The translations under genes were made by a program, and so were the position numbers. A stretch of 64,000 bases of DNA from assembly GCA_021785655.1 (NCBI GenBank), contig JAJYET010000003.1, forward strand, positions 34,937-98,936, written 5' to 3'. Origin of the DNA: a bacterium. Its GTDB lineage: Bacteria > Chloroflexota > Dormibacteria > Aeolococcales > Bog-877. Below, in pieces: positions 7,173 to 8,570 of this stretch; position 1 is the stretch's first letter, and each line of letters opens with the position of its first letter. The notes below the pieces were generated by a model. The model was not told the DNA's origin. It did not search any database and saw only the letters and a list, made by a program, of their open reading frames with translations.

Positions 7173-7916
7173 TCAGCGCGGAGGCCGGATGCCTCGGCGG
7201 ATGCCTCGGCGGACCAGACGGACCCACTCACGGTCCCCCTGCAGGGCCAACCTGGTGCGGAGGACCAGGTTGTTGGGGTCCTGGCTCCGGTGGCAGGCGA
7301 TCGCACGCTCCTGCACCCCCCGGTCGACCCGGACCGGCACCGGGTCCCCGGCGCTCCGAGCGAAACCGGCGAAGGGCGCCCCGAGGCGTGCCCGCAGTTG
7401 CGTCGCGATTTCTTCGGGAACCCCCCACTCCAGGCTGGTGAGAGCGTGGGCGTCGGCCGCCCTGAGAGCGGCCGCCGTGGCGGCGGCGTGGTCCGGATGC
7501 CCGGTGACCCCGACGCGGTCGAAGCCCACCAGAAGGCGTGCTCCCCGCAGCTCCTCCTCCACCAGCCCGGTCAGCTGGGCCGCCGGCAGCGAGGAGAGCC
7601 CGCCGTCGGGCAGCGCCTCCAGCCGGACTGAGCGCAGTCCCAGCACCTCAGCGGCCGCCAGCACCTCTTCGCGGCGTGTCGCCACCAGGTGGGAGCCGGC
7701 GCCGACGGTGGACGCCTCTCCGGCGGTGAGGCACAGGAGCCGGACCTCGATCCCAGCGTCCACCAGGGCCCGCAGCACCGCGCCGAGGCCGAAGCTCTCG
7801 TCGTCGGGGTGGGCCACCACCGCCAGGGCGCTGCCCAGCGGCGCGAGCAACCCCGCCAGGACGGAGATCGGCTCGGCTGCGGGCGGTTTAGGCGAGGGAG
7901 AGGAAGAGGTGCTCAA
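7173..7916 (-). CDS. PIG-L family N-acetylglucosaminyl deacetylase (LmbE/MshB/BshB-like)
   Basis: [14 protein letters not shown] is the PIG-L/LmbE zinc-deacetylase motif, and the length of about 240 aa fits. The true start is probably downstream of 7916, because the first ~10 codons overlap the upstream repressor gene. Confidence 0.7.
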
Positions 7917-8151
7917 GCTGCGCCTCGCTTGTCTCCCTCAGGTCGTCGGAACCGTCGGCGCACTGCTTAAGGCCGCAGGCGATGATCTTGAATCCCGCCC
8001 TGTCGAGGGCCCGGGAGGCGGCGGCCAGTTGGGTGACCACCTCCTCGCAGTCCCTCCCCGCCTCGATCATGGAGATGACTCCGGCGATCTGGCCGTGGGC
8101 CCGCCGCAGGCGCTTCAGGACCTCATCTGCCGATTTGGCCTCGAGCTGCAA
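7888..8151 (-). CDS. CsoR/RcnR/FrmR-family repressor (Cys-Cys-Cys type, no His at the Cu-ligand position)
   Basis: The 87-aa ORF with [53 protein letters not shown] aligns to CsoR (RLKRIEGQVRGV...YC...HANHC). The ligand positions read C/C/C rather than C/H/C. It is divergent from the rhodanese. Confidence 0.75.
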
Positions 8152-8180
8152 CTTAAGTCCTCCCTGGGCGGCCGCCCGGT

Positions 8181-8221
8181 TGCCTGCTGCAACCTCTTCT
8201 CGAATATACTCCGTAGGGTAT
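8181..8221 (+). promoter_or_regulatory. Putative rhodanese promoter (TTGCCT-N17-AATATA) with an overlapping CsoR-type pseudo-palindromic operator ATATACTCCGTAGGGTAT (8204-8221)
   Basis: This is the only AT-rich patch in the 68-nt divergent intergenic region. The ATAC-N8-GTAT inverted repeat resembles GC-tract CsoR operators (TACCC..GGGTA). It spans the predicted -10 and the ATG of the rhodanese. Confidence 0.35.
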
Positions 8222-8570
8222 GTTTGGGATCTTCCGCCGCTGGTCGGTGCCTGCGGTCACCATCGACGAGTTCGCCGAGCTGCACCGCAAGGGATGCTTC
8301 GTTGTCGATGTGCGCCAGCCCCATGAGTACATGCACGGGCATGTGCCGGGGGCGCACTCGGTTCCGCTCACCGAGTTGGCAAGGAGGGCGCCGGAGCTGG
8401 CCGAGAGGGGTCCGGTGCATGTCATCTGCGCCACCGGTCATCGCAGCCGGGTGGCCGCCCGCCTCTTGGCCGGGCGGGGGGTGGAGGCGGTCTCCGTCCA
8501 CGGCGGCACCAGCGCATGGCACCGCCGCCGACTGCCCCTGATTTCCGGGCGCCACCCCGGCCGGCGCTGA
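8220..8570 (+). CDS. Single-domain rhodanese (thiosulfate sulfurtransferase-like)
   Basis: The 116-aa ORF has a rhodanese fold with the active-site loop [18 protein letters not shown] (Cys-x2-Gly-x-Arg). Confidence 0.75.

Follow-up and report, generated by a model that had tools for sequence, protein, structure and literature searches.

Persulfide sensing by CsoR-family repressors is established, and the outputs reported so far for the actinomycete-type group are rhodaneses, persulfide dioxygenase, and sulfite export. The Streptomyces coelicolor ScCsoR circuit (SCO0618-0621) comprises a PDO-rhodanese, TauE, the CsoR-like repressor, and a divergent rhodanese; ScCsoR responds to polysulfide through Cys37, and its operator consensus, defined by EMSA, is ATACCn6GGTAT (PMC7533328). 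Loss of DNA binding upon Cys persulfidation or polysulfide cross-linking has been shown for ScCsoR and for firmicute CstRs (PMC7533328, PMC8643695), the latter represented by the S. aureus cst operon, E. faecalis CstR with RhdA, RhdB, and CoAPR, and S. pneumoniae CstR. The actinomycete group with ScCsoR and Rv1766 forms SSN cluster 3 of the CsoR network and is largely uncharacterised (PMC8643695). We describe a locus from a Candidatus Dormibacterota-like bacterium in which a repressor of this kind and a rhodanese are joined by a PIG-L/LmbE-fold protein, and ask how far the third gene belongs with the other two.

Organization of the locus

The features are collected in Table 1; "the window" is the whole 64-kb stretch of DNA analysed. 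All three open reading frames are real at these coordinates, and the same genes came from independent calls on identical public contigs (L172; L173 = GCA_021788235.1). The rhodanese gene diverges from the repressor gene across a 68-bp gap. The PIG-L frame overlaps the 3' end of the repressor gene by 29 nt if it starts at TTG 7916, and an alternative start, TTG 7850, lies 37 nt past the repressor stop codon. No minus-strand terminator-like site was found in a scan between the two genes, and the PIG-L gene is probably cotranscribed with the repressor. A gap of 280 nt separates PIG-L from glgE. An earlier reading of this DNA made from its letters alone (hereafter the sequence-only reading) had described a PIG-L gene overlapping the repressor in the same direction and a single-domain rhodanese diverging from it, and the gene calls and Pfam matches agree on both counts.

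Table 1 Features of the locus (positions within the window)
Feature	Position	Strand	Evidence
Predicted CstR-type (x-C-x-C) CsoR-family repressor, 87 aa	7888..8151	-	PF02583, E 1.9e-21
Predicted PIG-L/LmbE-fold zinc hydrolase, 247 aa	7173..7916	-	PF02585, E 3.8e-25
Single-domain rhodanese (sulfurtransferase), 116 aa	8220..8570	+	PF00581, E 7.7e-15
Putative operator ATACTCCGTAGGGTAT (reverse strand ATACCCTACGGAGTAT)	8206..8221		match to ScCsoR consensus, conservation
Putative overlapping -10-like hexamers	8203..8210		by-eye reading of the sequence

The repressor has a two-cysteine fingerprint

The repressor matches PF02583 (Trns_repr_metal) over its full length (76.7 bits, cut-off 22.8), and GGAGG (minus strand, 8159-8163) stands 7 nt before its TTG start. 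It carries two cysteines of the sensing type, Cys35 (codon 8047-8049) and Cys64 (7960-7962), and an extra, nonconserved Cys59 (7975-7977). When the protein is aligned by HMMER to CsoR-family members of solved structure, Gly60 takes the place of the Geobacillus CsoR ligand His (..erHanhC), and Cys59 falls one residue ahead of the copper-ligand position. Across 19 homologues there is no variation at C35, G60, or C64, whereas position 59 is C, G, S, or T, so that the conserved pattern is a two-Cys x-C-x-C and not a C/C/C ligand set. The sequence-only reading had placed the protein with CstR and not with Cu(I) sensors on the ground that Cys replaces the His of copper-sensing CsoR, giving a Cys/Cys/Cys ligand pattern; the class holds, with Gly at Y, but the reason does not. 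Three cysteines are indeed present, but a three-Cys ligand set is ruled out since Cys59 is off-register and varies among homologues.

Other features point the same way. The His at Y of Cu(I) CsoRs (x-C-H-C; H61 in MtCsoR, four residues before the second Cys) is absent, as is the N-terminal His3/Pro2 (W) of RcnR, InrS, and FrmR, the N-terminus here being MQLEAK; FrmR models and structures are matched weakly (26 bits vs. a cut-off of 133, E 2e-3). Asp34 precedes the first Cys, as in 7mq1, where Cu-CsoR has Tyr. The best match among solved structures is this same 7mq1 (E 2.4e-9, 40 bits), which we take to be S. pneumoniae CstR, and the listed Dormibacterota and actinomycete homologues score about 110 bits or more. 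Identity to homologues from Streptomyces, Kitasatospora, Mycobacterium, and Rhodococcus, some in TauE/PDO-type contexts, is 60-72%; this identity served as a stand-in measure of likeness to cluster 3.

The neighbours are those of a CstR: a divergent rhodanese here, and mostly sulfur-related families immediately beside the homologues. Upstream of 80 repressor homologues (n = 81) we counted rhodanese 17 times, TauE 9, YgaP-like 6, thioredoxin 4, and metallo-beta-lactamase 4; downstream (n = 79), DUF302 occurred 14 times. No CopA or CopZ family was found among the genes annotated up to about 10 kb from the locus, nor among the leading neighbour families of the repressor homologues or of the PIG-L-centred loci described below. 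Fingerprint and alignment thus support a CstR-like repressor (x-C35-G60-C64) rather than a Cu(I) sensor; a copper or nickel sensor or an FrmR is ruled out by fingerprint and neighbours.

The sequence-only reading was to be given up if the repressor grouped with Cu-CsoR or FrmR and the gene pairing were not conserved. The repressor falls among x-C-x-C proteins of actinomycetes, and the pairing with PIG-L is kept in Dormibacterota relatives, as set out below.

One operator lies between the divergent units

The operator overlaps the rhodanese ATG and is common to both divergent transcription units. It is the only site in the window with at most one mismatch to ATACCCNNNNGGGTAT, and it differs from the ScCsoR consensus at one position, as expected of a cluster-3-type operator. 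Its half-sites are conserved and its 4-nt core is variable in L001, L004, L006, L009, and L010, the last carrying a perfect ATACCCATATGGGTAT. This type of operator is also common to Cu-sensing CsoRs and RicR, so the DNA site by itself does not identify the inducer.

A strict consensus scan found no full sigma-70 promoter. By eye, two overlapping -10-like hexamers can be read, TATACT (8205-8210, plus strand) for the rhodanese and TATATT (8208-8203, minus strand) for the repressor/PIG-L unit. Given the position of the former, the rhodanese mRNA would have no leader or a very short one, and we infer that rhodanese expression is leaderless.

The rhodanese and the PIG-L enzyme

The rhodanese scores 55.6 bits against PF00581, below the GlpE and PspE equivalog cut-offs, and has a six-residue catalytic loop, C70-A-T-G-H-R. 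Six Dormibacterota orthologues share the N-terminus and the loop, in the form C(A)(T/S)GHRS.

The PIG-L protein scores 89.3 bits against PF02585. Its metal and catalytic motifs AHPDDE and GHPDH are invariant across its clade (H36, D38, D39, H140, D142, and H143), in keeping with the AHPDD and HxDH motifs of the family, and the clade has a signature of its own (LCLTxGEAST, LEWGV, and CHxSQ). The AlphaFold model (pLDDT 86) has the PIG-L fold, with MshB as its best match (TM 0.62, 21% identity); MshB, chitobiose, teicoplanin, and BshB deacetylases are indistinguishable in the fold search (all near TM 0.6 and 20% identity), and the protein stands equally far, at about 20% identity, from every PIG-L enzyme of solved structure. 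GalB hydratase is also among the fold matches, and the PIG-L fold is not always that of a deacetylase. NCBIfam scores fall far below the curated cut-offs for MshB (37 vs. 224 bits), Mca (32 vs. 277), BshB1 (54 vs. 182), and BshB2 (43 vs. 195), which rules out an MshB, Mca, or BshB equivalog. The sequence-only reading had assigned the protein to the class of deacetylases that make low-molecular-weight (LMW) thiols; a family resemblance stands, but with these scores and such low identity the narrower assignment does not.

The clade extends over Dormibacterota, Acidimicrobiia, and Actinomycetes including Rhodococcus and Mycolicibacterium (the Mycolicibacterium member is P0238). One member, P0176, has a C-terminal thiol-dioxygenase domain with HDH..H ligands: in a phmmer search against the PDB its tail matched 3-mercaptopropionate, cysteine, and mercaptosuccinate dioxygenases (E about 1e-3). 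Pfam gave no match on the C-terminal extension of the long PIG-L forms. The Dormibacterota copies of this domain have lost the His ligands. For PIG-L, dN/dS in a comparison with L004 was 0.29, and the values were 0.11 for the repressor and 0.13 for the rhodanese; PIG-L evolves faster than its two neighbours.

Conservation in Dormibacterota and actinobacteria

The sequence-only reading had proposed checking whether orthologous loci keep PIG-L and rhodanese together. The order rhodanese/repressor/PIG-L is kept in the Dormibacterota loci L004-L010 and L090 (67-89% repressor identity), and the longer block rhodanese/repressor/PIG-L/glgE/treS/mak/glgB is syntenic in Dormibacterota. In the closest relative (L001-L003, with a 95% identical repressor), 94 bp stand in place of ~555 bp of the PIG-L gene, of which a stump of ~67 codons remains, so the enzyme is dispensable there.

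In actinobacteria, PIG-L lies within 5 kb in only 4 of the ~72 repressor-centred loci. Rhodococcus sp. ABRD24 has the PIG-L orthologue beside a TetR gene, with the operator only downstream of PIG-L. A cultured example, Rhodococcus antarcticus strain 75, carries CMD, PIG-L, and a class-V aminotransferase on a plasmid (NZ_CP110617.1), 4.5 kb from DUF302 and a CsoR gene; ATACCn6GGTAT with at most one mismatch was not found on that plasmid, and variants of the form GTACCC-N4-GGGTAC occur on it only in the CsoR-MMPL intergenic region. In M. tuberculosis the PIG-L protein Rv0323c, listed in the literature as a hypothetical or putative amide hydrolase, presumably adjoins Rv0324, which we take to be an ArsR-type regulator with a rhodanese domain.

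PIG-L-centred loci are rich in sulfur genes and operators

We gathered 80 metagenome loci by PIG-L motifs alone. Gene counts rest on tblastn seeds where possible, the GC3-based caller having miscalled some genes (PIG-L in L010 and L082). An x-C-x-C CsoR gene is present in 23 of the 80 loci, and none of the 22 proteins whose alignment reaches Y has His there; the pairing of PIG-L with the repressor that the sequence-only reading had noticed thus recurs in unrelated loci. Rhodanese is found in 17/80, and 61 carry one or more of the following: CsoR, rhodanese, thioredoxin, OsmC, TehB-like methyltransferase, SufS-like desulfurase, DUF302, SQR-like, TauE, AhpD-like, and DsrE. Gene order and orientation are shuffled among the loci. 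In 405 kb we counted 109 operator sites (vs. 4.5 in shuffles); in 24/74 loci a site lies no more than 200 nt ahead of the PIG-L match, and 17 of these 24 have no CsoR gene on the contig. The PIG-L clade is recurrently linked to x-C-x-C CsoR genes, to their operators, and to sulfur genes; the link between repressor and PIG-L is strong when viewed from PIG-L and weak when viewed from the repressor.

A probable reactive-sulfur response and its alternatives

We consider it likely that the locus is a reactive-sulfur (persulfide/polysulfide) response module with PIG-L in its regulon. In such a module, a reduced dithiol tetramer of the CsoR family would bind the single palindromic operator and cover the -10 regions and start points of both units, the rhodanese gene on one side and the repressor/PIG-L bicistron on the other. 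By analogy with ScCsoR and the firmicute CstRs, we infer that the inducer is sulfane sulfur, which would persulfidate Cys35 and/or bridge it to Cys64 of the partner subunit; the repressor would then leave the DNA and both units would be expressed. The rhodanese would move sulfane sulfur from persulfides or thiosulfate to acceptors. PIG-L would be a zinc-dependent amide hydrolase; more speculatively, it may act, most likely, on an N-acyl or amide-linked LMW thiol (a precursor, S-conjugate, or persulfide), and might play an MshB-, Mca-, or Bca-like role, supplying a thiol acceptor or clearing a modified thiol.

That the regulon, PIG-L included, answers some other stress, such as selenium or tellurium species, peroxides, or thiol-reactive electrophiles, appears improbable. 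Several oxidants can react with dithiol sensors (PMC8643695), TehB-like methyltransferases lie near members of the PIG-L clade in 16 loci, OsmC-like proteins in 17, and AhpD-like proteins in 4, and several best NCBIfam matches are to selenoprotein-variant families (SQR_III_seleno, OsmC_like_Se, and Nterm_to_SelD). The selenoprotein-type matches are, however, all far below their cut-offs, the commonest partners handle sulfur (rhodanese, sulfite exporter, SQR-like, DsrE, and cysteine-desulfurase-like proteins), and the family member ScCsoR responds to polysulfide.

Quite improbable, too, is a PIG-L that is a passenger of Dormibacterota synteny, perhaps a sugar deacetylase for the adjacent glgE-treS-mak-glgB alpha-glucan operon. 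The usual substrates of PIG-L enzymes are GlcNAc derivatives, the block from rhodanese to glgB is syntenic, the gene was lost in L001-L003 while its neighbours stayed, and no minus-strand terminator was found from PIG-L to 6900, where the scan starts, near the glgE start. Yet none of the 80 PIG-L-centred loci and none of the actinobacterial loci contains GlgE, on which ground we reject PIG-L as part of a glgE operon; around PIG-L there is heavy enrichment of the operator and of CsoR, rhodanese, SQR-like, TauE, and thioredoxin genes, with the operator directly ahead of PIG-L in 24 loci; members of the clade are fused to thiol dioxygenases; and the 280-nt gap sets PIG-L apart from glgE. A Cu(I) or other-metal CsoR with Cys59 standing in for the missing His ligand is hardly credible: the repressor has three Cys, a type of operator shared with Cu-CsoR and RicR, and a weak match to NCBIfam RicR (38 bits), but the RicR cut-off is 175, Cys59 is one residue out of register and gives way to G, S, or T in most homologues, Gly60 does not vary, the N-terminal His or Pro at W is missing, and CopA/CopZ families are not among the genes around the locus or the leading neighbour families.

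Enzymes of this type lie beside such sensors in many other soil bacteria, and under the reactive-sulfur reading the PIG-L enzyme is probably an unrecognised part of bacterial reactive-sulfur handling. A more specific proposal, tentative and perhaps somewhat against the odds, is that the clade is a CstR-controlled enzyme of reactive-sulfur homeostasis that hydrolyses an amide in an LMW thiol, its persulfide, or its S-conjugate. If so, PIG-L would add a new catalytic step to sulfide/persulfide detoxification, the fused thiol dioxygenase would receive its product in some lineages, and the enzyme might point to the native thiol of Dormibacterota. The PIG-L family builds and recycles mycothiol and bacillithiol, and in this clade the same operator lies directly ahead of the gene in many independent lineages, which suggests a missing step linking sulfane-sulfur stress to the LMW-thiol pool. 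The clade is a testable target, with a clear signature, cultured carriers (R. antarcticus), and natural thiol-dioxygenase fusions, and offers a first way into the thiol and sulfur physiology of Dormibacterota, an uncultured phylum.

Comparison with known systems

The PIG-L protein shares with MshB, Mca, BshB1, and BshB2/Bca the fold, the zinc and catalytic motifs, and a genomic tie to thiol/sulfur chemistry, but it scores only 32-54 bits against cut-offs of 182-277, its clade has its own signature, and some members are fused to thiol dioxygenases; we know of no such fusion in MshB, Mca, BshB1, or BshB2/Bca. With the firmicute CstRs the repressor shares the superfamily, the x-C-x-C logic, the RDC motif around the attacking Cys, and rhodaneses as typical targets, whereas the relationship is distant (40 bits to 7mq1) and Y is Gly here and Asn there. 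We found no report in the literature of a PIG-L enzyme in firmicute CstR regulons.

The likeness to ScCsoR is closer. Both proteins have two Cys 29 residues apart (C37/C66 in ScCsoR, C35/C64 here) and no His ligand, both loci have a 16-bp ATACCn6GGTAT operator and a divergent rhodanese, with autoregulation implied, and the repressor is about 60-66% identical to Streptomyces homologues placed after TauE. Unlike in the S. coelicolor circuit, the operator here overlaps the rhodanese start codon, the repressor has the extra Cys59, and the host is not an actinomycete. The repressor and rhodanese half is an arrangement already described (SCO0620/SCO0621, PMC7533328) and by itself ordinary. Literature searches turned up no earlier report of a PIG-L link to CstR-type or persulfide systems, though the cluster-3 neighbourhood supplement of PMC8643695 might mention one, and the link appears to be undescribed: where the S. 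coelicolor circuit has a persulfide dioxygenase and TauE, this locus has neither, and a PIG-L hydrolase is the partner instead.

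The three genes and the sensor class of the repressor

The CsoR-family repressor, the PIG-L hydrolase, and the divergent rhodanese are all real genes: gene calling done independently on two same-sequence public contigs gave identical coordinates. The nearest named relatives of all three are in Candidatus Dormibacterota MAGs. Upstream of the repressor TTG is GGAGG (8159-8163), with a spacer of 7 nt. Convergent to the rhodanese is a 211-aa membrane protein with no match in Pfam or NCBIfam, whose position is conserved across Dormibacterota loci (62-87% identity in comparison loci L001, L004, L006, and L090); it could be a sulfur-related transporter.

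Genes and candidate regulatory elements of the locus
Feature	Position	Strand	Remarks
CsoR/RcnR repressor, 87 aa	7888-8151	-	PF02583, E 1.9e-21; TTG start
PIG-L protein, 247 aa	7173-7916	-	PF02585, E 3.8e-25; downstream of repressor
Rhodanese, 116 aa	8220-8570	+	PF00581, E 7.7e-15
Multi-pass membrane protein, 211 aa	8623-9258	-	
Candidate operator ATACTCCGTAGGGTAT	8206-8221		
Candidate -10 box TATACT	8205-8210	+	under operator
Candidate -10 box TATATT	8208-8203	-	under operator

HMMER alignments place C35 and C64 of the repressor on both Cys ligands of solved family members. They contradict the sequence-only reading that Cys replaces the copper-ligand His, since the Geobacillus CsoR ligand His is matched with Gly60 and Cys59 lies one residue earlier. 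Among 19 homologues (identity down to 66%), C35, G60, and C64 are invariant, position 59 being C, G, S, or T; the N-terminal W position of the repressor is neither His nor Pro. Because of this invariance, the register of G60 with the ligand His, and the residue at W, the W-X-Y-Z fingerprint is x-C-G-C, the two-Cys CstR pattern. Cys59, judged by the same alignment, is a lineage-variable extra residue, comparable in status to the nonconserved C9 of S. pneumoniae CstR (PMC8643695).

Proteins from Streptomyces, Kitasatospora, Mycobacterium, Rhodococcus, Nocardia, and Gordonia share 60-72% identity with the repressor. The top solved-structure match of the repressor (E 2.4e-9), ahead of Cu-CsoRs, InrS, and FrmR, was 7mq1, which we identify, with PMC8643695, as S. 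pneumoniae CstR. An R-D-C motif precedes the first Cys in the repressor and in S. pneumoniae CstR (7mq1), whereas Cu-CsoR has Tyr. The actinomycete identity is more telling for sensor class than the 7mq1 match; it serves as a proxy for putative membership in cluster 3 of the sequence-similarity network in PMC8643695, the actinomycete group that includes ScCsoR (SCO0620).

The repressor alignment was used to retrieve 80 genome loci, whose immediate neighbors were typed by Pfam. Upstream (n = 81) were rhodanese (17), TauE (9), MMPL (7), YgaP-like (6), thioredoxin (4), and metallo-beta-lactamase (4) genes, and downstream (n = 79) DUF302 (14) and PIG-L (4); copper-efflux families were absent from the leading neighbor families of these loci. 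By this typing, the neighborhood of repressor homologues is of the sulfur type, as expected of a CstR-like sensor.

Candidate operator and promoters

ScCsoR binds ATACCn6GGTAT (PMC7533328). The candidate operator, within the 68-bp intergenic region, differs from this consensus by one mismatch and is the sole match to ATACCCNNNNGGGTAT with at most one mismatch in 64 kb. Orthologous Dormibacterota loci keep the half-sites and vary the 4-nt core (TACG, TCTG, ACCG, GGTG, ATAT), the signature of a protein-binding site; a perfect ATACCCATATGGGTAT is present in L010. The putative operator overlaps the rhodanese ATG, which in L009 and L010 falls within the palindrome. Protein comparison shows the N-terminus of the rhodanese to be conserved, so that the rhodanese mRNA, as read from sequence, must be leaderless or nearly so. 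TATACT and TATATT, under the operator, are plausible -10 boxes by inference, as a search with the strict consensus yielded no complete promoter. A second tandem rhodanese paralogue has a second ATACC-N6-GGTAT operator ahead of it in Dormibacterota loci L006 (5518), L009 (1254), L010 (4441), and L090 (5159); the window has a single rhodanese and a single operator.

Linkage of PIG-L to sulfur genes

From its TTG start at 7916, with GAGG 6 nt upstream, the PIG-L gene shares 29 nt with the repressor gene; the latest start, TTG 7850, lies 37 nt past the repressor stop. A minus-strand scan between the two genes found no terminator-like site. The order rhodanese/repressor/PIG-L is conserved in Dormibacterota loci L004-L010 and L090, with repressors 67-89% and PIG-L proteins 57-70% identical to those of the window. 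The dN/dS ratio is 0.29 for PIG-L vs. 0.11 and 0.13 for its partners. An alpha-glucan operon (GlgE, TreS-type amylase, Mak, GlgB; 3498-6892, minus strand, and beyond) lies 3' of PIG-L after a gap of 280 nt. A mechanical 722-aa ORF at 5138-7306 is extended too far; GlgE as called begins near 6892, so that the seeming overlap with the 3' end of PIG-L is an artefact.

Because synteny within one phylum proves little, we fetched 80 metagenome loci by two PIG-L motifs alone (AHPDDESF and GVTGH[PR]DH), with proteins 42-55% identical to the window PIG-L. Within 4 kb, and with many contigs short, CsoR-family genes were present in 23 of the 80 and rhodaneses in 17; CsoR density was ~0.065 genes per kb of flank, about two orders of magnitude above a baseline roughly guessed at a few copies per genome. 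Clustering and typing also gave thioredoxin (17 loci), OsmC-like (17), TehB/TPMT-like methyltransferase (16), SufS/CsdA-like class-V aminotransferase (16), DUF302 (14), type-III-SQR-like flavoprotein (13), TauE (7), AhpD-like (4), and DsrE (3) neighbors, and 61/80 loci had at least one of these types, CsoR and rhodanese included. When PIG-L was clustered at 70% identity, 17 of 56 clusters had a CsoR-linked locus. The Y position, reached in 22 of the 23 CsoR alignments (the L092 fragment ends before it), was always G, S, or N, with two Cys, and never His (0/22). Gene order and orientation vary, as in CsoR>SQR-like>Trx>PIG-L>OsmC (L143), Rhod<CsoR>CMD>PIG-L (L101), and TauE<CsoR<Rhod>PIG-L (L092), which argues for a functional rather than inherited linkage between PIG-L and sulfur genes. 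The operator motif occurred 109 times in 405 kb of PIG-L loci vs. 4.5 in shuffles, and in 24/74 loci (17 of them with no CsoR gene on the contig) it lay upstream of the PIG-L match by at most 200 nt, counts that are underestimates because the one-mismatch ATACC..GGTAT search misses a GTACCC-N4-GGGTAC variant.

This variant was seen, beside the regulator only, on the RefSeq-annotated plasmid NZ_CP110617.1 of cultured Rhodococcus antarcticus, which carries CMD/PIG-L/class-V aminotransferase and, 4.5 kb from this set, DUF302 and an x-C-G-C "metal-sensitive regulator". Three GTACCC-N4-GGGTAC/GTATC sites (13,405-13,530 of L174, from this plasmid) occupy the interval that separates the CsoR-like gene from a divergent gene for an MMPL transporter. 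In Rhodococcus sp. ABRD24 (L089), where PIG-L adjoins a TetR gene, a perfect operator, ATACCCCAGGGGGTAT, lies just past the PIG-L orthologue (6738-6753), within the 5' portion of an 80-aa ORF (6709-6951) that lacks annotation and whose Cys-rich C-terminal part (..CYPVTCRTCAKTTWGGCGQH..CKCEK..) is downstream of the operator.

A second two-Cys CsoR subgroup, more distant, also adjoins the PIG-L clade in metagenome loci L094, L097, L107, L114, L116, L131, L154, and L155 (motifs ALEQAGF..GLxYC/WC and VQKMFMKLA; 38-49% identical to the window repressor). The SufS/CsdA-like aminotransferase (~570-600 aa) is recurrently adjacent to or divergent from PIG-L (L123, L128, L138, L151, L153, L156, L159, L160; L174 8761-10,533), and an OsmC-like gene often occupies the opposite side; the ~150-aa extension of the aminotransferase outside its catalytic domain has no Pfam match.

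PIG-L enzyme identity

The PIG-L clade has the invariant motifs AHPDDESFG and GVTGHxDH and the clade-specific LCLTxGEAST, LEWGV, and CHxSQ. The high-confidence AlphaFold model (pLDDT 86, pTM 0.85) best matched MshB (TM 0.62), chitobiose deacetylases, TT1542, teicoplanin deacetylases, LnmX, BshB, and GalB hydratase, all at ~20% identity. NCBIfam scores for BshB1, BshB2, MshB, and Mca were far under the cut-offs. Model and scores place the protein in the fold and outside every characterised subfamily.

Several clade members of 350-415 aa have an extra C-terminal domain, a cupin resembling CDO/3-mercaptopropionate dioxygenase in homologues P0176, P0159, P0132, P0135, and P0141 and in L090 (6001-7152) and L009 (2047-3156). 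That of P0176 matches 3-mercaptopropionate, cysteine, and mercaptosuccinate dioxygenases (E ~1e-3) with intact HDH..H iron ligands; Dormibacterota copies have lost these ligands, and the window PIG-L lacks the domain. The fusion ties the clade independently to small-thiol chemistry and does not reveal the substrate.

Proposed mechanism and comparison with known systems

The reduced repressor would sit on the candidate operator and block both divergent promoters. Sulfane sulfur would modify Cys35 and Cys64, the repressor would leave the DNA, and the rhodanese and repressor/PIG-L transcripts would be made. Rhodanese would then shuttle sulfane sulfur, and PIG-L might act on the amide of a low-molecular-weight thiol, thiol conjugate, or thiol persulfide. 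We regard the sensor and regulon parts as probable and the thiol-amide role as tentative.

An inducing stress other than sulfane sulfur, e.g., selenium, tellurium, or peroxide, seems unlikely. That PIG-L is a passenger gene is quite unlikely, given that GlgE, its downstream neighbor in the window, is absent from 80/80 metagenome PIG-L loci. The loss of PIG-L in the closest relative, L001, counts against its importance: there (also in L002 and L003; repressor 95% identical) 94 bp replace ~555 bp of the gene (window 7159-7713), leaving a stump of ~67 codons (L001 6265-6530). L001-L003 amount to a natural PIG-L knockout with repressor, rhodanese, and glgE operon intact. A metal sensor acting via Cys59 is scarcely credible.

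Sulfane sulfur sensing by this repressor would resemble that of ScCsoR, which polysulfide releases via Cys37, Cys66 being needed too (PMC7533328). In the literature searched, which excludes the supplementary neighborhood network of PMC8643695, no paper connected PIG-L or LmbE proteins with regulation of the CstR type, and such a link appears undescribed. The repressor and rhodanese pair is an already known arrangement, and ScCsoR itself represses a PDO-rhodanese gene, tauE, its own gene, and a divergent rhodanese (PMC7533328).
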